12,940 nt of DNA, taken from IMG/VR virus record IMGVR_UViG_2563366820_000007. The stretch is one strand, 5' to 3'. Both the position numbers and the translations under genes were made by a program. Under the pieces are notes generated by a model. The model searched no databases. It was not told where the DNA came from and was given only the letters and a program-made list of their open reading frames with translations. Positions 242 to 12,940 of this stretch are shown one piece after another (position 1 is the stretch's first letter; each line of letters begins with the position of its first letter). Source of the DNA: a virus (Duplodnaviria; Heunggongvirae; Uroviricota; Caudoviricetes).

Positions 242-823
242 TTATCCCGTTTTAGTGACTAACCATTGCAGAATAACGATAATTAAATATGTTAATGTGC
301 CAGTTCCAAGAAGTATTAATAATTGATAGCAACGTAGGACAATATTACTAATCGATTTTTGCATCACGATATTCACTGGCTCAGCCACACACTCTTTAGA
401 TCTTATCGATAGAATACTTGGAACTTCTGTATTTATTGATAATATTTCACATTGAATAGACTCACCAGGTGCAAGGCTTTCAAACTTGATAATATAGCGA
501 CCATCCTGTTCAATATTTTCTTCAAAATGGTGGACAGGCCAAAAATTAATATGCATTGGCTTATAGTTAAAAACCAATGATATATTAGTAGCACTTTCTC
601 GCCCTTCATTAACAAGAATAATAGATCGTGTATACACCAACTGTGAATTAGATATTACCTCACCATTGGCATTCCGTAAGGGTTCATTGAGAAGAAAAGT
701 AAATCCATGCTGATAACCATAGGATAACTTTGCCTTGCTTTTAAATCTGTTATTCAGTATCCATGTTAAAATCGCTATAAAAAAAGAAAATAGTTCTTTC
801 CCATAAAGACTAAAAAAACTCAT
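242..823 (-). CDS. hypothetical membrane protein, 193 aa, two predicted TM helices flanking a soluble domain of about 135 aa
   Basis: ORF track 242..826; the ATG at 821-823 has AAGGA about 8 nt upstream. Hydrophobic stretches LFSFFIAILTWIL near the N-terminus and LLILLGTGTLTYLIIVILQWLV near the C-terminus. GC content is visibly much lower than in neighbouring genes (roughly mid-30s percent by eye). No family recognised. Confidence 0.6.
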   Translation of the reverse strand: MSFFSLYGKELFSFFIAILTWILNNRFKSKAKLSYGYQHGFTFLLNEPLRNANGEVISNSQLVYTRSIILVNEGRESATNISLVFNYKPMHINFWPVHHFEENIEQDGRYIIKFESLAPGESIQCEILSINTEVPSILSIRSKECVAEPVNIVMQKSISNIVLRCYQLLILLGTGTLTYLIIVILQWLVTKTG

Positions 824-921
824 CACACATTTCCTTCAGTAATCTGATTCTGCTGTCAAAGTTACCAGCACTATAGTCATTCATCCACATTGCGACAAGA
901 AGGTTACAGCACGTTCAATCA

Positions 922-1219
922 CACCTTAGGAAATCTTAGGGGGCTGGTTGACACTTTCCGGCTTAAGGCCTTAATAAATCTTAATATCGCAGGTTGACAC
1001 ACTTGACACTTTTTCACGAAAAACCTTAACAAAACTTAACCATCCCTGGCATTTCTAAGCATGGCAACTTGACACTTTTCGCGATTTTTTCGGTTTTTTG
1101 ACGTGGTAAGTCTGGCGCAAAGCCAGTAACGACAGGGGTTACAGCGAGGTTGACACTTTTTCGCGTTCAGAGTGTAAAGTGTCAACCCGGCGGACGGCCT
1201 GACTTGACACTTTTTCGCG
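922..1219. repeat. array of degenerate direct repeats with core TTGACAC(T)TTTT(T)CGCG
   Basis: TTGACAC at 948, 994, 1003, 1069, 1150 and 1204, an inverted copy GTGTCAA at 1179, and a degenerate TTGACGT at 1097. The 16-mer TTGACACTTTTTCGCG is exact at 1150-1165 and 1204-1219. Interleaved second motif CCTTAnn-AAAT-CTTAnn at about 925, 968 and 1023. GGTTACAGC also recurs at 902 and 1137. Confidence 0.7.
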
Positions 1220-1232
1220 AATTTTACGGTCA

Positions 1233-1757
1233 TTAATGGGATGATTTTTCCCACTCAGCCAGGGCGTTTAGTCCTGCCTCACTCCATGTGTCCTGTTCAT
1301 CGGGACAATCGCTGGCAACATAGCATAGTTCACAACGCAGCATACGAATTGCCAGCCTGGCATTACCTCGCAAATTGTATTGTTCAAAGTAATGCTGCCC
1401 GTCGCAATCCTCAAGGCAGATAGCACCATCATCAAGAAAGTGCACTTCCCAGCCTAATTCCCCGGCTGCATCCAGCACACGCTGCTGTATGCCCTCGTCC
1501 GTTGCTGGCGCAGGGATTTTACCGTCTCTGGCCTTAACTGCTTTCCAGAACTCGCCCCACGTCATTTCCAGCGTTCTCTCTGGCCACATTTCAGAAACTG
1601 TGTCTTTTCCCTGTGCTGGTGGGCTGTTCCGCTGCTCTGTCGCTTCCACATCGATTTTTTTACCGGACATGACCACTTCGCCTTTCTCGATCCAGTCGTA
1701 AACTGTCTGGCGGCTTACGCCTTTGTGTTTGGCATATTCTGCCTTACTCATCAGCAT
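1233..1757 (-). CDS. Nu1/TerS-like winged-HTH DNA-binding protein, 174 aa (possible small terminase or packaging-related protein)
   Basis: N-terminus SKAEYAKHKGVSRQTVYDWIEKG follows the same pattern as lambda Nu1 KKQLADIFGASIRTIQNWQEQG. The C-terminal half is cysteine-rich (C..C, CDG, C..C). GGGTGAG sits upstream of the start, which lies 6 nt after the stop of the upstream gene. Functional call is inference. Confidence 0.5.
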   Translation of the reverse strand: MLMSKAEYAKHKGVSRQTVYDWIEKGEVVMSGKKIDVEATEQRNSPPAQGKDTVSEMWPERTLEMTWGEFWKAVKARDGKIPAPATDEGIQQRVLDAAGELGWEVHFLDDGAICLEDCDGQHYFEQYNLRGNARLAIRMLRCELCYVASDCPDEQDTWSEAGLNALAEWEKSSH

Positions 1758-1763
1758 TATGAC

Positions 1764-2435
1764 TCACCCTTCTTTTTCCAGTTGAGCCAGCCGCCCGGAT
1801 ATTTCTTCCAGTTTTTCCAGGGCTGGCTTGCAGGCCGCATCAATAACGTCCCGAACCATTCCGGCAAGCTGCTCATCTGCTGTCGGCGTTGTTACCTCCA
1901 CACCCGATGGTTTCCCGCCCTTATCCCAAACACCAAGCGGCACGAGTGCAACGTGATCGATAAGAAATGGCGTACCCTCAATAAAAAAATTGTCCTCGCC
2001 CATTACATCAGGAACTTCAGCCCCACCGGACGCACCACAAAACACAACCGACGGGCTGGTGGATACCTCCCCCCGTGCTTTCTGGATGTAATCGATGATT
2101 TCCTGCCCGTAAATCCGGCATACGCCCCACACCTCGTCACCGCGAATATACGGCAACATGACGGTGCCAATAATGCGCGACCGTTCGCCCACGTCTTCAA
2201 GGGTTTTGCTTTCGGGATGGTCGATAATGACGGGTACTCCGGCGCAACGTTCCAGGAACTGCGGATTGAGATAAGTTTGCGGTGAACGCCAGACAAATTC
2301 TTTTTCTTCGGCGCGGTAGGCCATTCCGGTTCCTGTGATACGCAGGTTAACCAGCCACATGTTGGAAAACTGATAAGGCGACGGTAGCTGTCCGTCCCGA
2401 ATCTGCTTCGCCGCCTCAATTTCTGTTAAAAGCAT
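1764..2435 (-). CDS. hypothetical protein, 223 aa
   Basis: Long ORF on the same strand as its neighbours, ends 6 nt before the TerS-like start. Acidic coiled-coil-like C-terminus (ALEKLEEISGRLAQLEKEG). Family not recognised; a morphogenesis or packaging role is only a positional guess. Confidence 0.55.
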   Translation of the reverse strand: MLLTEIEAAKQIRDGQLPSPYQFSNMWLVNLRITGTGMAYRAEEKEFVWRSPQTYLNPQFLERCAGVPVIIDHPESKTLEDVGERSRIIGTVMLPYIRGDEVWGVCRIYGQEIIDYIQKARGEVSTSPSVVFCGASGGAEVPDVMGEDNFFIEGTPFLIDHVALVPLGVWDKGGKPSGVEVTTPTADEQLAGMVRDVIDAACKPALEKLEEISGRLAQLEKEG

Positions 2436-2499
2436 AATGTTATCCGGTTATAAGCAATAAGCCCCGCCAAATCCGGCAGGGCTGAACTCAGCACGTTTT

Positions 2500-3078
2500 T
2501 CATGCCCCCGCGAGGCTTGCAACGTTAATTTTGACCAGGCGACGGGGAGGGATTTTGAAGGCGTTCAGCCAGACGTTCGGATCGCCCTGATATTCAGTAA
2601 TACGACGACCAGCTTCATCCATTCTTACGGTTTTACCCAAATGGCCCGGCGTGTTTTCCACGGCCCACTGAGCACTTTCCTGAGCAGCCTTGTAAATCTG
2701 ATCTTCCAGCACCGCCAGCGTTGCAGAATCTGAAACGGAACGAATATCCACATCACTGAATTTTTTAGCCAGCTTCTGTGCGCCAATTAATGCACGTTTG
2801 CGGTAATCCATCGACTTTTCACCAGCAAACGGGGCCGGAGCGCGACGGCCCATATTGCTGTATGCGGAATCCGCTTTAGCCTGGGCTTCTGCCAGTGAGG
2901 ATTCATCTTCGACTGACGCGACGATGTTTTGATTAGCGTTATCCTCTTTTATGAAATCCTGTGCGGGGATCGCATTCAGAATTTCGATAATCTCCTGCGG
3001 AGTGCTGCCCTGCGACTCTGACAGAGCGTTAACCACCTCCATCAGTTTTAATCGCAAATCTTCTTTGCTTGCTGGCAT
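2500..3078 (-). CDS. hypothetical protein, 192 aa
   Basis: ORF track 2500..3087; start preferred at MPASKEDL (ATG 3076-3078) with strong GAGAGGTGG upstream. Family not recognised. Confidence 0.55.
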   Translation of the reverse strand: MPASKEDLRLKLMEVVNALSESQGSTPQEIIEILNAIPAQDFIKEDNANQNIVASVEDESSLAEAQAKADSAYSNMGRRAPAPFAGEKSMDYRKRALIGAQKLAKKFSDVDIRSVSDSATLAVLEDQIYKAAQESAQWAVENTPGHLGKTVRMDEAGRRITEYQGDPNVWLNAFKIPPRRLVKINVASLAGA

Positions 3079-3117
3079 TTTTACCACCTCTCTTTTTTCA
3101 CCAAAAAATCACGACCA

Positions 3118-3297
3118 TCAGGCCGGACGTTCTACGGGATAAAGCGCCCGCTGCATTAAACGCCGGGCGACCTCATGAATGCTCGGAGCAATCCCCAGCG
3201 GAGAATTGCGGCGTTCCTCGTCCTGGATGCGCTGTAATGCTTCAATCTGATCACGAGCGAGTAAAACGGGTTTCACGCTGGCTTTTCTCATAGTCAT
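3118..3297 (-). CDS. small hypothetical protein (about 59 aa), basic, possible DNA-binding
   Basis: ORF track 3118..3315 begins on TTG; in-frame ATGs at 3297 and 3291 (MTMRKASVKPVLLARDQIEALQRIQDEERR...). Weak ribosome-binding site. Sits downstream of two terminators, so expression is uncertain. Confidence 0.3.
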   Translation of the reverse strand: MTMRKASVKPVLLARDQIEALQRIQDEERRNSPLGIAPSIHEVARRLMQRALYPVERPA

Positions 3298-3422
3298 ATC
3301 TTCTGAACAAAACAATGGTTATGATTGCATAAACTGAAATGACGATCTACATCATTGCAATCCATGAAACGATAACGCATGATGATCGCGTTCTTCCCAT
3401 TGACTTCAATCACCTGAAAAAC

Positions 3423-3455
3423 AAAGCCCGCAACACTTCTGGCTGCGGGCTTTTT
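3423..3455. terminator. bidirectional intrinsic terminator
   Basis: AAAGCCCGCA (3423-3432) pairs with TGCGGGCTTT (3444-3453) around an 11-nt loop. T-runs flank the stem on both strands. Confidence 0.6.
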
Positions 3456-3461
3456 ACTGGC

Positions 3462-3487
3462 ACAAAAAAGCCGGGAAAAATCCCGGC
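3462..3487 (-). terminator. intrinsic terminator downstream of the PerC-like gene
   Basis: On the minus strand GCCGGGA-UUUU-UCCCGGC followed by UUUUUUG; the hairpin is 3470-3487 and the U-tract 3462-3469. Lies 6 nt after the stop of the 3493..3780 CDS. Confidence 0.6.
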
Positions 3488-3492
3488 CTCCG

Positions 3493-3780
3493 TCACTGAC
3501 TGCAATTTTTCGATCTAGGGTATTTCCTGAATGCCTCACCATTGGGCTGATGTAATCCCATCCCGGCATGTGCCCGGCTGATGGTGTCGCGCATCTCCCC
3601 GAAATTATCCTGCCTTACTGGCGGGCGTGCTGCCTTGTGGATACATTCCGCTCGACGTTTTGCCGCCTGTTCCCGTGCCTTGTCACCGTTCGCCAGCATA
3701 ATGACCTCAGCCCACCGCGCCGCCGCTCTCCGGTACAGACCACGCGCTTCCAGTGCTTCGGCTTTACTGTCGTGAATCAT
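3493..3780 (-). CDS. PerC-family-like transcriptional activator, 95 aa
   Basis: N-terminal AEALEARGLYRRAAARWAEVI and later MGLHQPNGEAFR resemble PerC-type activators as I remember them. Its ATG overlaps the stop of the upstream ProQ/FinO-like gene (ATGA), indicating translational coupling. Confidence 0.5.
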   Translation of the reverse strand: MIHDSKAEALEARGLYRRAAARWAEVIMLANGDKAREQAAKRRAECIHKAARPPVRQDNFGEMRDTISRAHAGMGLHQPNGEAFRKYPRSKNCSQ

Positions 3781-4307
3781 GCGCCTGTTTTCTCCTTTGC
3801 TGCCCGGCGCTGACGTTTGCGCTTCTCATTCAGCGCCACCAGCCGCGTTTCTGCGTCCTGTTGTTCCTGTGGTGTCACCTCGCCGCACGGCTGGCCTTTC
3901 AGGTCGTAGCGTACCCCACCAGCCATTAAGGCGCGGTAATAGCGCGGACACTGTGCATAAGATGCCAGCGTCGCACGCAATGCCCCTGGACCGAATGCCA
4001 GCCCCCTGACGGCGAGATCCTGCAGCAGGTCGTCGAATATCCCCACCTTAAGCGGCTTCGGTGCTTCCCGGCTGAATAATTCTGGCCACAACTCAGTGAG
4101 GCGGTTAACGCGTCTGCGGTTTTTGCGCTGGCGTTTGGTCATATGCCGCCACGGTGTCGCCCCTGTGGGCTTCTGTTGCGCGTTCTGGTTACCGGGCATC
4201 ACTTTATATGCCGATGTGGTTTTATCCTGTTGCTGCGCCGCCTGCATCGTTTTCTGCGGCGTGCCGTAAATGCCTTTCGGTTTTCTGTTAATGGTCAGCT
4301 TTGTCAT
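3777..4307 (-). CDS. ProQ/FinO-family RNA-binding protein, about 176 aa
   Basis: Central segment ELFSREAPKPLKVGIFDDLLQDLA...YRALMAGGVRYDLKGQPCGEVTPQE aligns by eye with E. coli ProQ N-domain ([22 protein letters not shown]...[28 protein letters not shown]). Start at ATG 4305-4307 (GGGG upstream) or ATG 4317-4319. Confidence 0.7.
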   Translation of the reverse strand: MTKLTINRKPKGIYGTPQKTMQAAQQQDKTTSAYKVMPGNQNAQQKPTGATPWRHMTKRQRKNRRRVNRLTELWPELFSREAPKPLKVGIFDDLLQDLAVRGLAFGPGALRATLASYAQCPRYYRALMAGGVRYDLKGQPCGEVTPQEQQDAETRLVALNEKRKRQRRAAKEKTGA

Positions 4308-4321
4308 GCTTTGCCCCATCG

Positions 4322-4575
4322 TTACAACTGTCTACCGTATTAATACATCGATAATTAATGATTTTTACTAAATGGTAGACAGTGTAGATAGTTAAAATAA
4401 AAATTTTAAAAATGAACCCATAACTATCTGTTTTTATATACCCCCCCGTGGTTTAGAAATATAAAATAAACTGTCCACCTCTCTACCACATTAAAAATAC
4501 CTATATAATTCAAAACATTAATTAGTAGATGGTTGGTAGAGGGTTAAGTGTATCTGTCTACCAACCGTCTACCTT
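4322..4575. promoter_or_regulatory. AT-rich control region with GTAGAC-containing inverted repeats
   Basis: GGTAGACAGT at 4374-4383 and its reverse complement at 4326-4335, which lies in the 5' leader of the ProQ-like gene. Large inverted repeat GTAGATGGTTGGTAGAG (4524-4540) / CTGTCTACCAACCGTCTACC (4552-4571). Confidence 0.45.
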
Positions 4576-4661
4576 TACGTTTCAGCTTATAAATTTCGTA
4601 TTATGTTCTCCAACGGCGCTGATATAACATTCTGTTTTCATTTTTAACATCCATGATTTTT

Positions 4662-5055
4662 TAATTCCTCACCTGCTGCACAGTGAGAATTTATGAAGTT
4701 AATAACAATATGATTTTAAATATATTTTTAAGCACTCACTTTTTAATCCTTATATATACGCAAAAGTGAGGTAAATAGTTAAGTTTTAGTTAATATCTTG
4801 CATGGTGTGTTTTTTAACCTACCTGTTATTTTTATTACCTCATTTCTATTAACTCACCATTCCTCACTTTTGTTCCTCACTTTTTGTTATTCTTGTTCTG
4901 CTCCTCAGTCGTTTTCTTTATTGTTGTAATATGTTGTTTTGCAATGTGTTTTTAACTCCTCACTTTTTGATCTATATACAGGTGAGAAAGTGAGGAAAAC
5001 AGGGATGATTTTTAAATATTCCCTTCCCCCTCACTTTTACGCCTCACTTTTTACA
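4662..5055. repeat. iteron array, putative origin of replication
   Basis: At least 7 direct copies of CCTCACTTTT(T) at about 4735, 4862, 4875, 4968, 5029 and 5042, with degenerate copies at 4668 and 4838. Inverted copies AAAGTGAGG at 4762 and 4987 and GTGAG at 4683. AT-rich spacers. The last iteron overlaps the rep stop codon (5051-5053). Confidence 0.7.
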
Positions 5056-6463
5056 GTGGGCGCACATCATCACCGTCAATAGCGATTACGCCGTCACCTT
5101 CCAGCTTGTACAGCCAGCGCCGGAAGTTTTTCATCTCATACCCCAGCTTTTTCATGTCATCGCGCAACAACGGAATAGTGCATTTATCTCCGCGTTGCGT
5201 GCGTGAACGAATACAACCCCATAGTGCGGCGTGATTCTCCGTCTTGTTCCCGGCTTCCTCGATGCGCTCCAGTTCAACCGGCGAACGGGGCTTATCCTCC
5301 AGCACCAGCGACGTGATTAACTCCCCGCCTTCATCCTTGAAAAGCTCAACCTCGCGCAAATCGCAAGCCATTTCTTTCAGTTCCTCCGCATCCTTCATCT
5401 TGGTACATGCGATAACCAGGGCTTCACTGCCTGCACCTTCACGGCGTATCCGGTACTCTGCATCCAGTGCTGCACGAAACGCACTGGAACCGCGCGCACC
5501 CTTTGTTTCATCCTTGCCGGAATGATGAATTACCAGCACTGTAGCGCCTGTACGCCGTTTCAGTTCGTCACATCCATGGACAAATGCCCCCATATCCCGC
5601 GCATCATTTTCATCGCTGCCACCAAAGCAACGCGCCAGAGTATCCAGAATAATCATGCGTACAGGTTTACCCGTTTCCTGCTCAACCTGTCGGGCAGCAA
5701 TAACCATTTCATCAACATCACTCGGTGCGGCCGGAAAAATTGGACGATTTACCAGGTATAGATTTTTCACCTGCTCACTGTTCACCAGTTCCCATGCCTT
5801 GATACGACGAGGAACACCGATCCCGCCCTCACCAACGACATACATCACCGCACCATGTACAACCCTGCGACCTCCCCACGGGATACCGGTAGCAACATGA
5901 CACGCCCACGAACACGCAAGGAACGACTTATAAGAACCGCTCGCACCGTATGTGCTACATAGCGAATTAGCCGGAATCACGCCCTTAACTACATAGCTAA
6001 GCTGTGAATCATATCCTTCCGATCCAATGCTCATTGGTAGCGTGGTTTTTCGCTGGCTGTATTGCTCGTCAGTAAGCATTTCTTCGCGCTCTGCCTGTTC
6101 GCGGATCCGTTGCAGGTAATCGCGCCAGTTCTCCGGCTCCTGGTCGGTGATGCCTTTGTATAATTTCGCCTCCTGTACGCCAGCCAGCGCCAGTTTTTCA
6201 GCGATAGCGTTGATCTGGATTGGCTCTATCTCCCCCGCGATATAAACACGCGCAAAGCGGCGTTCATCGTCGACAATGCGGATATTCGCCAGGTCTGCCA
6301 GTTGCTTTGGCCCCAGATAAACAGGAGGCACGTTATCGCCATGTTTTCGTCCTTCGCTTTCAATCCAGTGTTGAGCATGGGAGTAAGCGTCCGCCCCGGC
6401 AAAAATGATTACCTCTGTGAATTTATCCTTCGGCTGATATTTCAAATTCGGTGCGTTTTTCAC
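5051..6463 (-). CDS. RepA-like replicative helicase (RecA-fold P-loop ATPase) with an N-terminal domain of about 150 aa
   Basis: GTG start at 6461-6463 with GGAGGT 6 nt upstream, overlapping the stop of the upstream gene (GTGA). C-terminal half carries a P-loop-like GASGSYKS, a Walker-B-like MIILDTL and a VLVIHHSGKD motif, typical of RSF1010 RepA / DnaB-like helicases. An iteron origin follows immediately. Confidence 0.8.
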   Translation of the reverse strand: MKNAPNLKYQPKDKFTEVIIFAGADAYSHAQHWIESEGRKHGDNVPPVYLGPKQLADLANIRIVDDERRFARVYIAGEIEPIQINAIAEKLALAGVQEAKLYKGITDQEPENWRDYLQRIREQAEREEMLTDEQYSQRKTTLPMSIGSEGYDSQLSYVVKGVIPANSLCSTYGASGSYKSFLACSWACHVATGIPWGGRRVVHGAVMYVVGEGGIGVPRRIKAWELVNSEQVKNLYLVNRPIFPAAPSDVDEMVIAARQVEQETGKPVRMIILDTLARCFGGSDENDARDMGAFVHGCDELKRRTGATVLVIHHSGKDETKGARGSSAFRAALDAEYRIRREGAGSEALVIACTKMKDAEELKEMACDLREVELFKDEGGELITSLVLEDKPRSPVELERIEEAGNKTENHAALWGCIRSRTQRGDKCTIPLLRDDMKKLGYEMKNFRRWLYKLEGDGVIAIDGDDVRPL

Positions 6464-6774
6464 TTCTTACCTCCCCGCTCACGAATAATTTCACGTACTG
6501 TCCTGATGCGTTCCGCGCCCGTGACGCTCATGATTTTGTCGATGTCGCTTAATTCTGCTGGTGGCGCTTTACTTACAAGGATGAATTCCCTTTCAAAGCG
6601 CATATGTGACGACACGCAGGGATGCGCATACCCTTCGCGGATATAGGTCACACGATAAGCACTCACCGTTTTTACCGTTATCTGACTGCCGTATTTATCC
6701 CGGAAAATATCGCCGGGGCGAATTTCAGGCCGAGAGAGACCGCTGGCAGTAAAGCCAGAATTTTTCTTTTTCAT
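6460..6774 (-). CDS. hypothetical protein, 104 aa, translationally coupled to rep
   Basis: ATG at 6772-6774 with AGGAAAA upstream; stop overlaps the rep GTG start. Family not recognised. Confidence 0.55.
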   Translation of the reverse strand: MKKKNSGFTASGLSRPEIRPGDIFRDKYGSQITVKTVSAYRVTYIREGYAHPCVSSHMRFEREFILVSKAPPAELSDIDKIMSVTGAERIRTVREIIRERGGKK

Positions 6775-6979: not shown

Positions 6980-7337
6980 GATGCACCCCCTGAATGACCT
7001 GATAGCCGCAACAGGTCAGCAATTCGATAAATTCCGGTAATGTGCCGAAACAGCAATCATCACGCAGCTGTTCGCGGGATACCTCGACGCCGTTTTCGTA
7101 GTGACTCACCATACGTCCGGTAAAATGCAGATCATCATCGTGATGGCTCGTTGACGGCTTAATCAGTCGCGCACGTTCTGCCAGTTCCAGCAATGCTTCA
7201 ACACTTCCGGCAATTGCACCATCCGGCAGGTGGTAATTACGCACTATGCGCCCATTCTCCACATTGACCAGTAGCTGCCCGGTAAATTTCTCGTCAAACT
7301 GAATGCTGTTAAGGTCAGAAATTGACAGGTTATGCAT
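6972..7337 (-). CDS. hypothetical protein, 121 aa, two tandem FTG modules
   Basis: ATG at 7335-7337 with AGGGGGTAAG upstream. Two internal repeats: FTGQLLVNVENGRIV...SVEALLELAERARLIKP and FTGRMVSHYENGVEV...LPEFIELLTCCGYQV. Overlaps the upstream stop (ATGCATAA). Confidence 0.55.
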   Translation of the reverse strand: MHNLSISDLNSIQFDEKFTGQLLVNVENGRIVRNYHLPDGAIAGSVEALLELAERARLIKPSTSHHDDDLHFTGRMVSHYENGVEVSREQLRDDCCFGTLPEFIELLTCCGYQVIQGVHHG

Positions 7338-7695
7338 GGCTTACCCCCTGACGAATACGGGCGGCGAATACCATCACACAGCCATCAGGAGATTGCTGGC
7401 GTGCTTCCTGTTCGCTGGTGGCCTCGATGTGAATTACACGCGGTTGTGCCGTACTCAGGGCGATAAAACGCCAGATAAAATTGTTCTCGCATTTCTGAAT
7501 AAACAGCGTGTTTTCTTCGCGCCCTTTCCATGTTGCCGAGATATAGCCCATATCATTGAGCATCTCGCAGGCATCCACCAGCGTATCAGCGGCTACGTGT
7601 ACAGTGTTTTTACCGTCAGCCATGCAATCACGGTGCACCGCCAGGAAGGTGTATATAAATTTAGGGTGAGTTTGGGTATGCTGTGTTCCAGCCAT
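7330..7695 (-). CDS. hypothetical protein, 121 aa, first gene of the replication-side operon
   Basis: The track ORF 7330..8466 is trimmed to the ATG at 7693-7695 (MAGTQHTQ...), which has GAGGT 7 nt upstream. Internal duplication KFIYTFLAVHRD / NFIWRFIALSTAQ. Family not recognised. Confidence 0.55.
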   Translation of the reverse strand: MAGTQHTQTHPKFIYTFLAVHRDCMADGKNTVHVAADTLVDACEMLNDMGYISATWKGREENTLFIQKCENNFIWRFIALSTAQPRVIHIEATSEQEARQQSPDGCVMVFAARIRQGVSHA

Positions 7696-7784
7696 AATCG
7701 TTACCTCGTTTAACGGTTTGGTTAGACGCCCCGCTACTGCCGCAAACAGTTCGGGGCGTTGTCGTTTACATCCTCTTACTGAGG

Positions 7785-7882
7785 TGTGATTTAAATTAAA
7801 TTCAACTGAATCACAGGTCAAGTATTTTTTGTGATTCTTTTTTGTGTATACTGAATCACATCTTTTGTTTAGGAGAATGCAC
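7785..7882 (+). promoter_or_regulatory. divergent promoter/operator region
   Basis: Alternating half-sites TGTGATT (7785, 7830) and AATCACA (7810, 7854) at a spacing of about 22 bp. Extended -10 TGTGTATACT at 7842-7851. AGGAGAA ribosome-binding site at 7871-7877 before the ATG at 7883. Confidence 0.5.
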
Positions 7883-8188
7883 ATGGCAAAAAACACTATC
7901 AACGACAAATCAAAACAGATTTCAATTCGTATCCCACATGATGCTTTTGATGGCATGGAATCCGTAAAACTGGACGGCGAAAGCAACGCCGGATTCATAG
8001 TAACCGCCATGCGTGGTGAGATCGCCCGCCGCCAGGCAGAAGGAAGAGGAGAAAACCCCCTGGTTTCTTCGCTTGATGCACTGGCACAGGTGGAAAAAAT
8101 CGGAGTCAAAGCTGCCGAGGAGATCGGGCAGCTCGTCACCGTCGCGCGTGAAGAACTCCAGCGCCGCAAGGCCAAAGAACAGGAGTAG
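7883..8188 (+). CDS. small putative transcriptional regulator, 101 aa
   Basis: The only convincing plus-strand gene; ATG at 7883 with AGGAGA upstream (the track ORF starts earlier on GTG at 7844). Segment KQISIRIPHDAFDGM could be a ribbon-helix-helix-like beta strand followed by helices (weak). Divergent from the rep operon with operator-like repeats in between. Confidence 0.5.
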   Translation: MAKNTINDKSKQISIRIPHDAFDGMESVKLDGESNAGFIVTAMRGEIARRQAEGRGENPLVSSLDALAQVEKIGVKAAEEIGQLVTVAREELQRRKAKEQE

Positions 8189-8458
8189 TTGATCAGCACC
8201 GGGCGACCAGAAAAAATCGTATCAGTCGCGCCACCAGCAAAATTTTTTGCTTTCCGGACGACGTGGCCAACGACATTTTGCAGCAAAATATTCTGCATTT
8301 CTGGCGTGCTGTAGTAACGGTGATCAGCGCCTTCACTCTGTGCGACCACAACGCTATAATCTGCCTCGTAGACAGTAAGCAATATGGTGCTACAGGTAAT
8401 TCGTTCACAAAGGCGCTCCGGCAACGGGGCGCTTTCTCTTTTTGTAACGGTCAGAGCG

Positions 8459-9259
8459 TTACACATGGCTGTTTTCCTCCATGCGACGGGCTAACCAACG
8501 CTGCGAAAGGCGAATTAATTCAGCTTTCCGCTGGTGGTAGTCCTGGCCTAACTCAATCAGCGTGATATTGCTCTGCTCAAGGTAAGAAAGGTGCTCAAGC
8601 TGCAACGTGCTCATGTGGTCGCGTGGTTCGCCTGTAATGCCGTTCGCCAGTGCCCACTGTTTTGCAGTCATGCCGCCCAGCACGATACGCGCCAGCATAT
8701 TGGCTTCCGTGGTGTAATGGTGCTGTAGAGTGTTTTTACCCAGTTCAGCCCGGTACGCCTCCAGCGCGGCACACATTGGCTTAAAGTAGCTGGCAACTGT
8801 GATACGGGCTTTCAGTTCCCGGCGTAACGCTGCGGAACGTACAGGCGCAACCTTGTGTAGCTCTTCCTCGCATTTGATGAAGTACTGACGAACGGCGCGG
8901 CCCTGTTCGGTGCGTTCGACCATCGCCAGTTCTTTCGCCATGTTGATAGTGCTCAGGTAGTCGTGCTCTACACGTTGGCGAGATTTTGCGCTCACCGGAT
9001 TGGGGGAGGTCAAATTTTCTACGAATTCAAAATCCACGCCCTTTTTAAATCCGTACTCATCAATGCGTCCTTTAATCCAGGTTGTGAAATCACGCTTCAC
9101 ACCCAGCGCCTTATGCAACGCTCTGGCGCTAACAATATTGGTTTCACGCCCGCCAATAACGCCGGAAATAACCGGGATAATTTCGCCGAAATTTTGTTGG
9201 CTCTGGTTTTCAGGCCGAACGAATCCCTGCCCCTGTACGGGCGTTTTTCGCAGTTTCAT
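8459..9259 (-). CDS. phage antirepressor-like protein (AntA/KilA-type), 266 aa
   Basis: N-terminal region NIVSARALHKALGVKRDFTTWIKGRIDEYGFKKGVDFEF resembles antirepressor N-domains; C-terminal half is helical. Domain assignment from memory only. Confidence 0.55.
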   Translation of the reverse strand: MKLRKTPVQGQGFVRPENQSQQNFGEIIPVISGVIGGRETNIVSARALHKALGVKRDFTTWIKGRIDEYGFKKGVDFEFVENLTSPNPVSAKSRQRVEHDYLSTINMAKELAMVERTEQGRAVRQYFIKCEEELHKVAPVRSAALRRELKARITVASYFKPMCAALEAYRAELGKNTLQHHYTTEANMLARIVLGGMTAKQWALANGITGEPRDHMSTLQLEHLSYLEQSNITLIELGQDYHQRKAELIRLSQRWLARRMEENSHV

Positions 9260-9337: not shown

Positions 9338-9535
9338 TCAGGTAGCTGTTCCGCGTGATTCCGCAATACGCTGATTAATCCACTCGTCAATTTCACTCTC
9401 AACGAAAGCAATCGCTCGCGAGCCAATTTTAACTGATGCAGGAAATTTACCTTGCCCCATAAGGCGATAAATCCATGCCTTGCTATATCCAGTTCTACGC
9501 TGAACTTCCGTTAAACGAATAAGCGTATTTGACAT
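9338..9535 (-). CDS. alpA: AlpA-family transcriptional regulator / excisionase-like protein, 65 aa
   Basis: LTEVQRRTGYSKAWIYRLMGQGKFPASVKIGSRAIAFVESEIDEWI matches the AlpA (Phage_AlpA) pattern. GAGGT sits 4-5 nt upstream of the ATG. Confidence 0.85.
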   Translation of the reverse strand: MSNTLIRLTEVQRRTGYSKAWIYRLMGQGKFPASVKIGSRAIAFVESEIDEWINQRIAESRGTAT

Positions 9536-9755: not shown

Positions 9756-10526
9756 TCATCGTTTGATAGGACAGGCGACAAGCTCAATAGATGCGGCCTG
9801 TCGGGAGGTAAAACCTCGTTTTTCAAGCTCAGTAGTAATCGCGCCCTGGTTTCCCCTGGTTGCGCGATCATTCTCTGGGTCGTAATTGGCCCACTCTCTG
9901 TTTCTAATATCGATAGCCAGATACAATGGGTCATCATCACGATACGCCCTTAGCAAAATCGGGCGCTCCTTTTCTAACTGATTTACCCGCTCCCTTAACG
10001 ATTCATTTTCTTTTTCCAGCATTGCAATTCGGGATAAAAAATCATCATCTGTACGCAACTCTTTATGTTCAATATTGCTTCCTTGCGCCTCGTTATTTTC
10101 AGAAGAGTCAGCACATTCCAGATTCATTAACCCGTCAAGGATTTCTGGGAAAATTTCGAAAATTTCATTTCTTCTGAATCCCATTGCCTCAAATTCGGCA
10201 TCTTCCCAATAACCAGATACCAGAAAACCACTCTCATCCCTCTCACAAGGTAAACAACCACGCTCCCTAACCGTATCCAGTTTTGCATAAAGAAAGTTAA
10301 AATCAGGTCTCCACTCAAACGGATCCGAAGAATAAAGTTCCACCTCATTTAATGAATTTACTGTGTACAGGGTAATACCTGGATTTACTGTATTTATTCT
10401 CTTGAGTATCCAGGTAATGACTTCTGAAATATTAGCATCAACAACTTTAAATACATCATCAAGAAAATCACGTAAATAAATAAACTCTTTTTTATATTCA
10501 TTTAATTCGGCATGAATATCAACCAT
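9756..10526 (-). CDS. hypothetical protein, 256 aa, orphan cargo between int and alpA
   Basis: The track ORF 9756..10607 is trimmed to the ATG at 10524-10526 (MVDIHAELNEYKKEF...). Central coiled-coil-like segment LSRIAMLEKENESLRERVNQLEKERP. The 5' two-thirds of the gene is AT-rich. No family recognised. Confidence 0.55.
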   Translation of the reverse strand: MVDIHAELNEYKKEFIYLRDFLDDVFKVVDANISEVITWILKRINTVNPGITLYTVNSLNEVELYSSDPFEWRPDFNFLYAKLDTVRERGCLPCERDESGFLVSGYWEDAEFEAMGFRRNEIFEIFPEILDGLMNLECADSSENNEAQGSNIEHKELRTDDDFLSRIAMLEKENESLRERVNQLEKERPILLRAYRDDDPLYLAIDIRNREWANYDPENDRATRGNQGAITTELEKRGFTSRQAASIELVACPIKR

Positions 10527-10527
10527 A

Positions 10528-10582
10528 CGCACACCTCTGCGCCCTCTACCGTAGTGGCTGTGCCAGTCCGCAGAGGTGTGCG
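10528..10582 (-). promoter_or_regulatory. perfect 14-bp inverted repeat (hairpin) covering the ribosome-binding site of the 256-aa gene
   Basis: CGCACACCTCTGCG (10528-10541) and CGCAGAGGTGTGCG (10569-10582) separated by 27 nt. In the minus-strand mRNA the 3' arm contains GAGGUG directly upstream of the AUG at 10526. No U-tract follows, so it is not a typical intrinsic terminator. Confidence 0.6.
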
Positions 10583-10653
10583 GATTTTCGGGAGCGACCC
10601 TAGACACAGCCTTTTCTTAATCGCTCAAAGTCTACTACTGTATACTCAACCAG

Positions 10654-11868
10654 TCACCCGCATTTTCCGAACTCACCATGCACCACATTTCCGCCATGCT
10701 CGAGCGAATCCATATAGTCGGCGTACCACTGGAGCATCTCGCGCCGCCCGTCCAGATATTGCGCATGATTGTACGTGCCACGAATTGAGTTCTTATCAAC
10801 GTGTGCAAGCTGCGTTTCTATCCACGCGGTGTTATAGCCCTGCTCATGCAAAATGGTGCTCATGGTGTGCCGGAATCCATGACCAGTAACGCGCCCGGCA
10901 TAGCCGATACGACGAATGAGCACATTCATCGCCATTTCACTCATTGGCTTACTGTGGTGAATACGACCGGGGAAAATAAACTGATACTGGCCTGTCATGT
11001 TTTTTAACTGCTCCAGTATTTTTATCGCCTGTTCTGGTAATGGCACACAATGCGGACGGCGCATCTTCATTCGTTCTTTAGGCACTTCCCACAAACGATT
11101 ATCAAAATCGATCTCCTGCCATTCTGCCTGCCGTAATTCCCCGGGTCTGACACCTGTCAGAATTAATAGCCGCATTGCCAGTTTGACGATCTGGCTTCCG
11201 GTGTACGTATTAAAAACGCGGAAAAATTCCGGCAGTTCGTCGGCCTTCAAATAGGCGTAATGCTCTTTTTTATGTGGAGCAAATGCGCTCACCAGGTCAG
11301 GGGCTGGATTATATTCGGCGCGTCCGGTGATGATTGCGTACCGGAACACCTCGCCGCATCGCTGGCGAACCTTACGCAATTTTTCAGTCGCACCACGGTC
11401 ATTAAGACGGGAAAGAACCGCCAGCAATTCCATCGGCTTAATTTCTGCGATCGGCCTACCGCCAATGTACGGAAAAACATCTTTTTCAAACGTCTCGATC
11501 ATTTCCTCGGCGTATGACGATGACCACCTGTCGATCCGCTTTTCGTACCATTCGCGAGCAATACCCTCAAAAGTATTGCCAAATTTGCTCGCCTGTTCTC
11601 GCTTTTGGGCTTTTCTGGCCTCACTTGGATTTATACCACCAGCAAGAAGCCTTTTAGCCTCATCCCTTGCCGCCCTGGCATCAGACAGAGACACATCAGG
11701 GTATACCCCCAACGACAACATTTTGGGCTTTCCTGCAAACCTGTAGCGCAGTCGCCACCCTTTCGAACCGTTCGGCTCAATGAGCAACGAAAGCCCGTTA
11801 CCGTCATTGAGTGTATAAGCCTTTTCTTTCGGCTTCGCGCGCCTGATGGCAAGGTCTGAAAGCAGCAT
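10654..11868 (-). CDS. int: P4-family tyrosine integrase, about 405 aa
   Basis: N-terminus MLLSDLAIRRAKPKEKAYTLNDGNGLSLLIEPNGSKGWRLRYRFAGKPK is a typical P4-type integrase arm-binding domain. C-terminus carries HGFRHT and RGTYNHAQY catalytic motifs. Adjacent to a tRNA gene. Start at ATG 11866-11868; an upstream in-frame ATG at 11907 is also possible. Confidence 0.9.
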   Translation of the reverse strand: MLLSDLAIRRAKPKEKAYTLNDGNGLSLLIEPNGSKGWRLRYRFAGKPKMLSLGVYPDVSLSDARAARDEAKRLLAGGINPSEARKAQKREQASKFGNTFEGIAREWYEKRIDRWSSSYAEEMIETFEKDVFPYIGGRPIAEIKPMELLAVLSRLNDRGATEKLRKVRQRCGEVFRYAIITGRAEYNPAPDLVSAFAPHKKEHYAYLKADELPEFFRVFNTYTGSQIVKLAMRLLILTGVRPGELRQAEWQEIDFDNRLWEVPKERMKMRRPHCVPLPEQAIKILEQLKNMTGQYQFIFPGRIHHSKPMSEMAMNVLIRRIGYAGRVTGHGFRHTMSTILHEQGYNTAWIETQLAHVDKNSIRGTYNHAQYLDGRREMLQWYADYMDSLEHGGNVVHGEFGKCG

Positions 11869-11962
11869 GTGTATAGCTCCAAAAAATAAATTTTGTCCTA
11901 TACGCATTACTATACACTTCTGTGTGTAGATTCTGGTAGTTGTGAGTAGACGTTAATAAGCT

Positions 11963-12032: not shown

Positions 12033-12106
12033 TGGAGCGGGCGAAGGGAATCGAACCCTCGTATAGAGCTTGGGAAGCTCTCGTTCTACCATTGAACTAC
12101 GCCCGC
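12033..12106 (-). tRNA. glyU: tRNA-Gly (anticodon CCC)
   Basis: The reverse complement reads GCGGGCGTAGTTCAATGGTAGAACGAGAGCTTCCCAAGCTCTATACGAGGGTTCGATTCCCTTCGCCCGCTCCA (74 nt), with cloverleaf arms and anticodon loop TTCCCAA. Matches E. coli glyU as I recall it. Confidence 0.9.
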
Positions 12107-12184: not shown

Positions 12185-12940
12185 TCAGCATTTTGGCTTG
12201 CTGCCCTGAGGCGGCAAGTAACGCAGCGGATCAATTGCCGTAGCACGGTATCGAATCTGGAAATGCAGGCGAACAGATGCCGCATCAGTGCTCCCCATAG
12301 TGGCGATTTTTTGCCCAGCCTTCACGCTTTGCCCATTATTTACCAGCATCGTGTCATTATGGGCGTAAGCCGTAATGTAATCTTCACTGTGTTTAATCAT
12401 GATGAGATTACCGTAGCCACGCAGCTGGTTGCCCACATACACCACCTTTCCTGCACCCGCGGCGTAAATAGGTGTACCCCGTGGAGCTGAGATATCAATC
12501 CCTTTATTGCCGCCATCTGCTGTCGAATACGGCATGATAACTTTCCCTGTCGTTGGCCATAACCAACAACGTTGCCCTACTGGCGGCCAGGAAGATTTCG
12601 GTACCGCTGATGACGGTGTAACCGATGCGGTTTTGGTCGTTGATTTGGCGGTTGATTTACGTGTACTACTGCTATTTTTCGCCCCACCCAGTTTTAGTTT
12701 CTGACCAACTTCAATGGTGTAAGGGGGTGAAATGCCGTTCAGTCGCGCAAGTTCTTTTACGCTGGTTCCCGTGGTGCGCGAAATACGATATAGCGTATCC
12801 CCCCGTTTCACGGTGTAAACGGAGCCGGAATACGTTCCTGTATCGGATGATTTGCTACCCGAACAGCCCGCCAAAAGCAGACCAACCGATAACAACATCA
12901 CGATACCCAGAGATTTTTTATTCAGGCGTCCCGCACTCAA
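12185..12940 (-). CDS. actS: LysM/M23-peptidase-domain lipoprotein ActS (YgeR), amidase activator
   Basis: 251-aa ORF; lipobox LLLAGCSGS, LysM-like YTVKRGDTLYRISRTTGTSVKELARLNGI, and C-terminal M23-like GNKGIDISAPRGTPIYAAGAGKVVYVGNQLRGYGNLIMIKHSEDYITAYAHNDTMLV. Matches E. coli YgeR/ActS from memory. The start codon sits at the window edge. Confidence 0.9.
   Translation of the reverse strand: MSAGRLNKKSLGIVMLLSVGLLLAGCSGSKSSDTGTYSGSVYTVKRGDTLYRISRTTGTSVKELARLNGISPPYTIEVGQKLKLGGAKNSSSTRKSTAKSTTKTASVTPSSAVPKSSWPPVGQRCWLWPTTGKVIMPYSTADGGNKGIDISAPRGTPIYAAGAGKVVYVGNQLRGYGNLIMIKHSEDYITAYAHNDTMLVNNGQSVKAGQKIATMGSTDAASVRLHFQIRYRATAIDPLRYLPPQGSKPKC

Follow-up and report, generated by a model that had tools for sequence, protein, structure and literature searches.

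The DNA that follows the rep gene of a phage-inducible chromosomal island (PICI) of Escherichia coli carries an array of short repeats, or iterons. The island was found in a stretch of 12,940 nucleotides (IMG/VR virus record IMGVR_UViG_2563366820_000007), which is termed the window here, and on its gene content it is of the Gram-negative PICI type. Positions 4610–5050 of the window most probably are the island's vegetative replication origin, cognate to the Rep protein whose gene is immediately upstream. The repeats themselves, their conserved layout, their co-variation with Rep, the predicted fold of Rep and the mosaic history of the island, with inheritance of the module as a cassette, are all seen by sequence analysis and comparison with relatives.

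The repeated word is CCTCACTTTT. Five exact direct copies start at positions 4862, 4875, 4958, 5029 and 5042 on the plus strand, and one exact inverted copy is at 4762–4771. A direct copy at 4734 and an inverted copy at 4986–4995 have one mismatch. This gives eight copies (six direct, two inverted) within 4734–5051 at no more than one mismatch. The entire window has nine such matches compared with 0.95 ± 1.04 expected, and none of 200 shuffles reaches nine; the ninth match, with one mismatch at 3087, is unrelated to the array. The 8-mer core CTCACTTT occurs eight times, always within 4735–5050, versus 0.38 times expected. A seventh direct copy, CCTCATTTCT at 4838, appears at two mismatches, and weaker copies are found at 4852 and 4903. 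A first-pass annotation of this DNA proposed seven or more direct iterons, together with inverted copies and AT-rich spacers. The repeats are indeed much more frequent than chance would give and limited to the region, inverted copies are present, and 4610–5050 is 69% AT versus 52% for the window. The count of seven holds when two mismatches are allowed, whereas six direct copies are found at one mismatch.

The array was also thought to begin at the last codons of the helicase gene. The last iteron, at 5042–5051, overlaps the TAA stop codon by one base only; thus the array borders on the coding sequence and does not extend into its last codons. The extent first assigned to the origin, 4662–5055, covers the array, but the homologous block that is tied to this type of rep reaches to approximately 4610.

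In Gram-negative PICIs, the origin (ori) directly follows the gene of the replication initiator on its 3′ side, and two iteron sets flank an AT-rich region (Fillol-Salom et al., 2018; PMC6092414). The rep-ori segment of EcCICFT073 drives plasmid replication, and deletion of ori significantly reduces it (Fillol-Salom et al., 2018). The proposed PICI rep-ori arrangement matches this published layout, and it is supported by the PICI context, by conservation of the sites and by co-variation with a residue of Rep.

Approximately 150 related loci were compared. These come from bacterial contigs taken as one genome per species (80 loci), from contigs that carry certain alleles of E. coli, Salmonella and Enterobacter, and from IMG/VR viral contigs (80 loci). 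A layout of seven sites in the first 200 bp or so past the rep stop codon is kept across them. Among the species-representative genomes, about 60 Enterobacterales and two Oceanospirillales loci have iterons at like offsets, which are, read on the rep strand from the stop codon, approximately 0–3, 13–16, 55 (inverted), 85, 140–155, 170 and 183. Nearly all Enterobacterales loci have a repeated word in the 200 bp past the stop codon, and in most of the approximately 150 loci the first iteron is flush with the stop codon or overlaps it, i.e. the putative origin is 3′ of the initiator gene as in the published PICIs. At about +190, by the two degenerate iterons at 4838–4861 of the window, the alignment of origins also shows a GGTGAG half-site that recurs among relatives. 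The gene beyond the origin varies, and can be ProQ, a gene of 83 amino acids plus SSB, or others. Many RepA-type islands (L084–L090, L094) have an origin of only about 200 bp, followed by the 83-amino acid gene and the SSB gene. The window has neither of these past the origin, and ProQ and PerC are found there instead.

The iteron words vary by lineage and have a common core, AAGTG-N-GG. The word AAGTGAGG is found in this window and a few others, AAGTGGGGGAA in most Enterobacterales, and AAGTGCGGCA as well as AAGTGGGGAG or GGGGGC in several lineages. Photorhabdus has AATG(T)GGGGG, and one Oceanospirillales locus has AGTGGTGA. When eight closely related origins from E. coli and Salmonella are aligned, an A/G difference is seen at every site at once, and the spacers drift independently of the iterons. 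All copies therefore change in concert, which is the pattern expected of binding sites for one protein. The spacer word CACCTGTATA is nearly fixed in the eight origins, and its core CCTGTATA is invariant, despite the differing iteron words. Perhaps another factor binds this word, or it has a structural role.

Rep and the residue that covaries with the iterons

Rep is a protein of 470 amino acids. The Pfam AAA_25 domain encompasses residues 150–319 (3.8e-44), and the protein corresponds over its full length to phrog_2850. Homologues (n = 1478) are named either ‘helicase RepA family protein’ or ‘DNA primase’ in their sources, and they form mosaic allelic classes of 62–91% identity. A fold search with the whole protein gives a weak match to the Twinkle helicase. 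The description of rep as a helicase gene is correct as to family but appears incomplete, as Rep is likely also the initiator.

The C-terminal domain, residues 409–470, is modelled by AlphaFold with the succession H-H-H-beta-beta of a winged helix. Its predicted local distance difference test (pLDDT) score is 71–85 in the full model and above 90 in a model of the domain alone. Foldseek searches with this domain return a list dominated by winged-helix DNA-binding domains, including PcaR, histone H1, DtxR/IdeR, LexA, DnaD-N and the MCM8 winged helix, with probabilities of 0.9–0.99 and root-mean-square deviations mostly about 2.5–3 Å. In silico, Rep is thus modelled as a helicase initiator with a C-terminal winged helix that would recognize the iterons. 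The N-terminal domain, in turn, has a confident alpha/beta prediction (pLDDT 70–90). By tblastn, it has 92% identity to the N-terminus of the primase-family protein of the primase-type island L001 and 51% to that of EcCICFT073. Pfam searches at relaxed thresholds with the N-terminal and C-terminal pieces of Rep gave nothing credible. A role of the N-terminal domain in recruiting a primase or the replisome of the host is conceivable.

Residue 446, an Asn in the window Rep, is just before helix 3 (447–456) of the modelled domain, which is usually the recognition helix. Reps from 43 loci were grouped by iteron class alone and the columns of their alignment were then compared. Position 446 is the sole column in which the residues of the four iteron classes are pairwise disjoint: N446 is found with GAGG, H446 with GGGG(A/G)… or GGGGGC, K446 with GGGGGA, and S446 with GCGGC. 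The pairing of Asn with adenine, and of His or Lys with guanine, agrees with general preferences in protein–DNA recognition.

The rule was then used as a prediction on further alleles and held in every case. The alleles P0081, P0065 and P0025 (KHF, with H446) have AAAAGTGGGGAG at the seven positions, and apart from H446 their C-terminal 60 amino acids are nearly identical to those of the window Rep. The KNM allele P0049 (N) has AAAAGTGAG, the KHL allele P0060 (H) has AAAAGTGGG, and the KGF allele P0112 (G) has A(A/G)TGCG. Even a degraded KNF locus from a Pantoea symbiont (L054, N) has AAAGTGAGG. The 80 independent IMG/VR loci were left out of the derivation of the rule. They give 58 unique combinations of Rep C-terminus and ori, of which 26 have N with A and 32 have H with G, with no exceptions. 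The N/H switch is found in at least three backgrounds: …K[N/H]FRRWLYKL, …K[N/H]FSRWLRKL, and KNMRRWLAKL versus KHLKRWLAKL.

Anatomy and proposed working of the probable origin

The conserved core of the origin is 4862–5051. The proximal set, 4958–5051, has four iterons, i.e. two in tandem, one inverted and one direct. The distal set begins with a tandem pair at 4862–4884, followed by two degenerate copies. The sets flank a 73 bp region that is 70% AT (4885–4957), which is the arrangement published for PICI origins. Inverted copies are in the proximal set and in an extension of the core, and the distal tandem pair is unidirectional. The counterpart of the 73 bp spacer in relatives is A-rich on the rep strand, and on its sequence this spacer is where the core origin is likely to melt.

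The extension, 4610–4861, consists of 250 bp and is common to the window and its E. coli relatives L002, a RepA-type island, and L003. It contains an extra convergent iteron pair at 4734–4771 (4734–4743 direct, 4762–4771 inverted), and a 77 nt block around this pair, 4711–4787, is a 70%-identical copy of the unit at 4935–5011. The extra pair is present in L002 and L003 and missing from the 200 bp origins of other alleles. Coding remnants of the genes found here in relatives (the 83-amino acid gene, SSB and others) were searched for in the extension and none was found.

No DnaA box is found in the core origin, and the window has 32 matches to TTWTNCACA at one mismatch versus 28 expected. The boxes are thus at chance level and there is no sign of DnaA dependence.

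Could the array be mainly regulatory? Bound by Rep or by another island protein, it might repress read-through from rep, control the ProQ/PerC/packaging operon, or handcuff copies of the island. Plasmid iterons often serve as control elements too, the array is upstream of the next operon, and the extra convergent pair, a partial duplication missing elsewhere, could be such an element. Against this, the sites keep their offsets from the rep stop codon whichever gene follows, promoter and terminator scans of 4200–5200 give matches at chance level only, and the co-variation is with the DNA-binding domain of the replicase itself. In addition, deleting such a region lowered replication in the one PICI tested (Fillol-Salom et al., 2018). 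A mainly regulatory array is therefore improbable.

A packaging site, pac or cos, for the terminase of the helper or of the island is another role to be weighed. PICIs must carry a packaging signal, a TerS-like helix-turn-helix protein is encoded in the island, and some pac sites have repeated short words. Yet the array is tied physically and evolutionarily to rep and not to the TerS-like gene, it covaries with the Rep residue, and the lambda cosN word is not found in the window even at two mismatches. A packaging function is extremely unlikely.

The origin at 4610–5050 would work as follows, where dependence on induction, binding, melting, self-loading and priming are steps that we infer. Rep would be a hexameric helicase with a RecA fold, similar to RepA, DnaB and Twinkle, that carries a C-terminal winged-helix domain. 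After induction by a helper phage, with AlpA-driven expression as in the island family, the winged-helix domains would bind the iterons, which read AAAAGTGAGG on the rep strand. The stop-proximal set and the distal tandem pair flank the 73 bp AT-rich stretch, and Rep bound on both sides would melt this DNA. The helicase could then load itself, as do the Reps of the staphylococcal pathogenicity islands (SaPIs). Residue 446, where the recognition helix starts, would read the sixth base of the core AAGTG-N-GG and so set the specificity of the replicon: Asn with A here, and His with G, Lys with GGGGGA, and Ser or Gly with C in relatives.

Several points weigh against this origin and its proposed working. 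The AlphaFold model of the whole Rep protein is poor (mean pLDDT 63), and a PDB sequence search with Rep found no match to a solved structure. No primase is evident in the island. A nearest-neighbour stability scan places the least stable 41 bp duplex of the entire window at 4691–4731 (90% AT), outside the conserved 190 bp core, which makes the melting site uncertain; melting would start either in the spacer between the two sets, as in the SaPI model, or in the extension. It should also be pointed out that rep and ori are adjacent and co-inherited, and their co-variation may therefore partly reflect shared descent. The uniqueness of column 446 and the repeated independent switches argue for a direct relationship between residue and iteron.

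A further point is that the +140 site, CCTCAGTCGT, is degenerate in the window. This raises the question of whether the island is defective, with a decaying and non-functional origin whose repeats are relics. In favour of this, the island is a scarred recombinant, and the arrangement is rare, with one occurrence in 5426 complete E. coli genomes. However, rep is intact and 99–100% conserved across several independent samples, eight iterons are exact or near-exact, and the module is 97.7% identical in another strain. That the repeats are relics is very improbable.

A second iteron module and the history of the island

The intergenic gap past rep is 731 bp long, and its first-pass description missed a second, unrelated iteron module at 4320–4609. 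The word here is CTGTCTACC, of which six copies are found at no more than one mismatch in 4328–4573; the window total is eight versus 1.35 expected. A megablast search of 5426 complete E. coli genomes splits the gap at 4609/4610. The 4610–5050 half is found only beside ‘helicase RepA family’ genes. The 4325–4609 half directly follows ‘DNA primase family/DUF5906’ genes, on their 3′ side, in about 100 genomes. In L001 the corresponding segment, 6001–6283, is 96% identical to the second module and directly 3′ of the primase-family gene.

The CFT073 genome provides the link with experiment. In EcCICFT073, a 288 bp region separates the primase-family gene from the next gene, immediately 3′ of pri-rep, and it has more than 10 copies of CTGTCTACC, CTATCTACC and GGTAGATA. 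This is where Fillol-Salom et al. (2018) place ori. The word of the second module is thus the word of an experimentally validated origin.

The window is collinear with L001, at 96% identity over 921–4609 and 94% over 6085–6475. The exception is 4610–6084, where L002 is the match, at 97.7% identity. An N-terminal domain of about 129 amino acids is common to the two replicase types (92% identity), beyond which they have either D5_N, DUF5906 and Pox_D5 or AAA_25 and the winged helix. As the window is L001-like except for this L002-like segment, a 1.47 kb cassette with the helicase core, the winged helix and the cognate origin has taken the place of the body of a D5-type replicase gene. The D5-class origin stayed behind with the last 9 nt or so (4601–4609) of the primase gene that was lost. 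In the related strain ETEC1747 (L003), the scars between the modules are larger, with some 50 bp from the 3′ end of the primase gene and also a 147 bp fragment of the ProQ 5′ end. The second module is 77 bp shorter than in L001, with the loss between two CAACTGTCTACC repeats. The two modules are adjacent in only one of the 5426 genomes. A metagenome contig spans the junction at 99.95% identity, and the tandem modules are therefore not an assembly artefact.

Might the second module be the functional origin, and the CCTCACTTTT array secondary? It shares its word with the ori region of EcCICFT073, and in about 100 E. coli genomes a region 96% identical to it follows primase-type replicases. However, the island has no D5/primase-type replicase, as only the shared N-terminal 129 amino acids match. 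The module is behind a recombination scar, and has lost several iterons with the 77 bp, and the specificity residue of the resident Rep matches the CCTCACTTTT array. With the cognate replicase gone save for its N-terminal domain and last few nucleotides, the second module is an orphan rather than a complete replicon; its iterons are not directly 3′ of a D5_N/DUF5906/Pox_D5 gene of their own. That it is the functional origin is very improbable. Each of the rival explanations is at odds with the link of the array to rep, with the co-variation, or with the missing D5-type replicase; an origin at 4610–5050 is favoured.

A larger picture can be drawn. Throughout this widespread family of satellite replicases, origin specificity, and hence replicon compatibility, would be set largely by residue 446 (N, H, K or S/G), and cassettes of helicase, winged helix and origin would be exchanged behind a shared N-terminal domain. 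The window would be a dual-origin satellite, in which the D5/primase-class origin, kept largely intact, allows replication in trans by a co-resident primase-type PICI, or titrates the initiator of a rival. Taken jointly, these proposals are speculative and rather doubtful.

The window matches E. coli assembly GCA_000352685.1 at 100% identity. The integrase gene of the island is next to a tRNA gene, alpA is present, the minus strand carries all major open reading frames of the window, and Pfam and PHROGs scans find no tail or lysis genes among them; such is the context expected of a PICI. An Rfam scan of the window detects the tRNA and the int-alpA RNA only, with no match in the origin region. 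Coordinates are in Table 1.

Table 1. Positions of probable origin, Rep and island features in the window
Feature	Position	Strand	Remarks
Whole Rep-cognate origin module	4610–5050		Travels with RepA-type helicase; megablast split at 4609/4610
Iteron 1, CCTCACTTTT (AAAAGTGAGG on rep strand)	5042–5051	+	Offset +1; site kept in family
Iteron 2	5029–5038	+	Offset +14; tandem with iteron 1, 13 bp away
Iteron 3, inverted, CCTCACTTTC	4986–4995	−	Offset +55; conserved inverted site
Spacer word CACCTGTATA	4974–4983	−	Between inverted iteron 3 and iteron 4
Iteron 4	4958–4967	+	Offset +85; conserved site
AT-rich, strand-asymmetric spacer	4885–4957		73 bp; 70% AT; 56% T on plus strand
Degenerate iteron CCTCAGTCGT	4903–4912		Offset +140; at conserved +140/+155 site of family
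Iteron 5, distal tandem pair	4875–4884	+	Offset +168; conserved site about +170
Iteron 6, distal tandem pair	4862–4871	+	Offset +181; conserved site about +183
Two degenerate iterons, CCTCATTTCT and ACTCACCATT	4838–4861	+	
Second, orphan iteron module, CTGTCTACC/GGTAGACAG	4320–4609		About 9 copies, both orientations; AT-rich spacers
AT-rich intergenic gap	4320–5050		731 bp
rep, 470-amino acid RepA-family helicase gene	5051–6463	−	AAA_25, RecA fold, DnaB/Twinkle-like; TAA 5051–5053
C-terminal winged-helix domain, residues 409–470	5054–5239	−	Proposed iteron reader; AlphaFold model
Asn446 codon	5126–5128	−	Candidate specificity determinant; just before helix 3
N-terminal domain of Rep, about residues 1–129	6077–6463	−	Shared with D5-type ‘primase’ replicases of other PICIs
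M23/LysM lipoprotein gene	12185–12940		Probably chromosomal
tRNA-Gly(ccc)	12033–12106		Adjoins int
Tyrosine integrase (int)	10654–11907		
int-alpA RNA, Rfam RF02996	10543–10610	−	48.4 bits versus gathering score 35.8; just downstream of integrase gene
AlpA (alpA)	9338–9535		
AntA-like protein	8459–9259		
378-amino acid protein	7330–8466	−	Icd-like C-terminus
DUF4222 protein	6460–6774		
ProQ/FinO protein	3777–4319		
PerC	3493–3780		
DUF2213 protein	1764–2435		
TerS-like helix-turn-helix protein	1233–1757		

Some other open reading frames of the island can be mentioned. The 378-amino acid protein has an Icd-like cell-division-inhibitor domain in its last 50 or so residues, and relatives have Icd-like proteins of 67–121 amino acids. 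The N-terminal part (approximately 7477–8188) has no counterpart in L001, L002 or L003 and no match in Pfam, PADLOC or NCBIfam. Segment 193–920 is AT-rich, and L001 and L003, collinear with the window elsewhere, lack it. Its open reading frame at 242–826 (minus strand, 194 amino acids) matches no family in Pfam, PHROGs or PADLOC and may be an accessory cargo gene at the end of the island. Between int and alpA, a 283-amino acid open reading frame (9756–10607, minus strand) has only sub-threshold bZIP-like matches, and relatives have a hypothetical protein of 260–266 amino acids at this position. A PADLOC scan of the unannotated open reading frames of the island gave zero matches.

Relation to known systems and biological meaning

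The closest experimental parallel is EcCICFT073. Both islands carry int, alpA, DUF4222, replicase, ori and PerC/packaging genes, all in one direction. The origin directly follows the replicase gene on its 3′ side and has AT-rich DNA flanked by groups of short iterons, and the N-terminal domains of the replicases, about 126 amino acids, are homologous. They differ in the remainder of the replicase, which has an AAA_25/RecA-fold core and another C-terminal domain in the window but D5_N, DUF5906 and Pox_D5 in EcCICFT073, and in the resident iteron word, AAAAGTGAGG versus CTGTCTACC. The window allele is known from sequence alone. The E. coli PICIs have four allelic Pri-Rep variants (Fillol-Salom et al., 2018).

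The SaPI Reps are self-loading helicases, and their C-terminal winged helix reads iterons that are immediately downstream of rep, around an AT-rich centre (Qiao et al., 2022; PMC9371898). The window resembles the SaPIs in having an initiator-helicase with a (modelled) C-terminal winged helix, short iterons immediately downstream of its own reading frame and on both sides of an AT-rich centre, including opposite orientations, and no separately encoded loader. However, SaPI Reps are AAA+ proteins related to superfamily 3 (SF3) helicases and MCM, whereas the window Rep has a RecA fold and no detected sequence similarity to them, and the iterons here are 10–12 bp versus 5–6 bp. The likeness would be one of mechanism and architecture, by analogy and not by homology. 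As the helicase superfamily differs from those of both the SaPI Reps and the D5-type EcCICFT073 replicase, the shared architecture points to modular reuse or convergence.

The alpha protein of phage P4 is also a satellite replicase, with a helicase and a C-terminal origin-binding function, and it recognizes short repeated octamers. The P4 genome has two separate iteron clusters, ori and crr, and in this the window is similar. But alpha is a primase plus SF3 helicase, and both P4 clusters carry one repeat and serve one protein, whereas the two clusters of the window carry different words that belong to two replicase classes. PICIs and P4 have been argued to be separate lineages (Fillol-Salom et al., 2018).

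Two types of plasmid origin have some resemblance. The helicase core of Rep is in the same Pfam family, AAA_25, as RepA of RSF1010/IncQ plasmids, and NCBI names it ‘helicase RepA family’. IncQ plasmids have a separate RepC that binds 20–22 bp iterons and a RepB′ that primes, whereas the window helicase carries its own predicted winged-helix domain. Pfam scans of the island reading frames found no RepC-like or RepB-like protein, and thus not the three-protein system of IncQ. Classical iteron plasmids (pPS10, R6K, RK2, F) likewise have direct repeats by an AT-rich unwinding region and an adjacent rep. Their iterons are 17–22 bp, about twice the length of those here (10–12 bp), their origins have DnaA boxes, and in the window the initiator would itself be the helicase. 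No island reading frame has a Pfam match to a Rep_3-type initiator, which has two winged-helix domains, and the region does not have the makings of a Rep_3 plasmid origin.

The origin is as the PICI literature predicts, and therefore adds an example rather than a concept. Three features appear to be undescribed in the literature searched: the stop-anchored layout of seven sites, the one-residue specificity rule, and the cassette swap with an orphan origin. Searches with the iteron strings returned unrelated primer matches only, and a search on PICI, iterons and winged helix returned the Vibrio PLE satellite only, with nothing on the AAA_25 replicase type.

The relationship between a single residue and a single base could be the means by which related satellites hold their replicons apart within a cell. 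If the rule for residue 446 is true, an N446H change would shift the preference of Rep towards AAAAGTGGGG. The rule could also serve to re-target satellite replicons. The mosaic structure is that of a specificity domain and its origin that move between islands as one cassette. The origin left over from such a move raises the question of whether co-resident satellites cross-replicate or interfere with one another.

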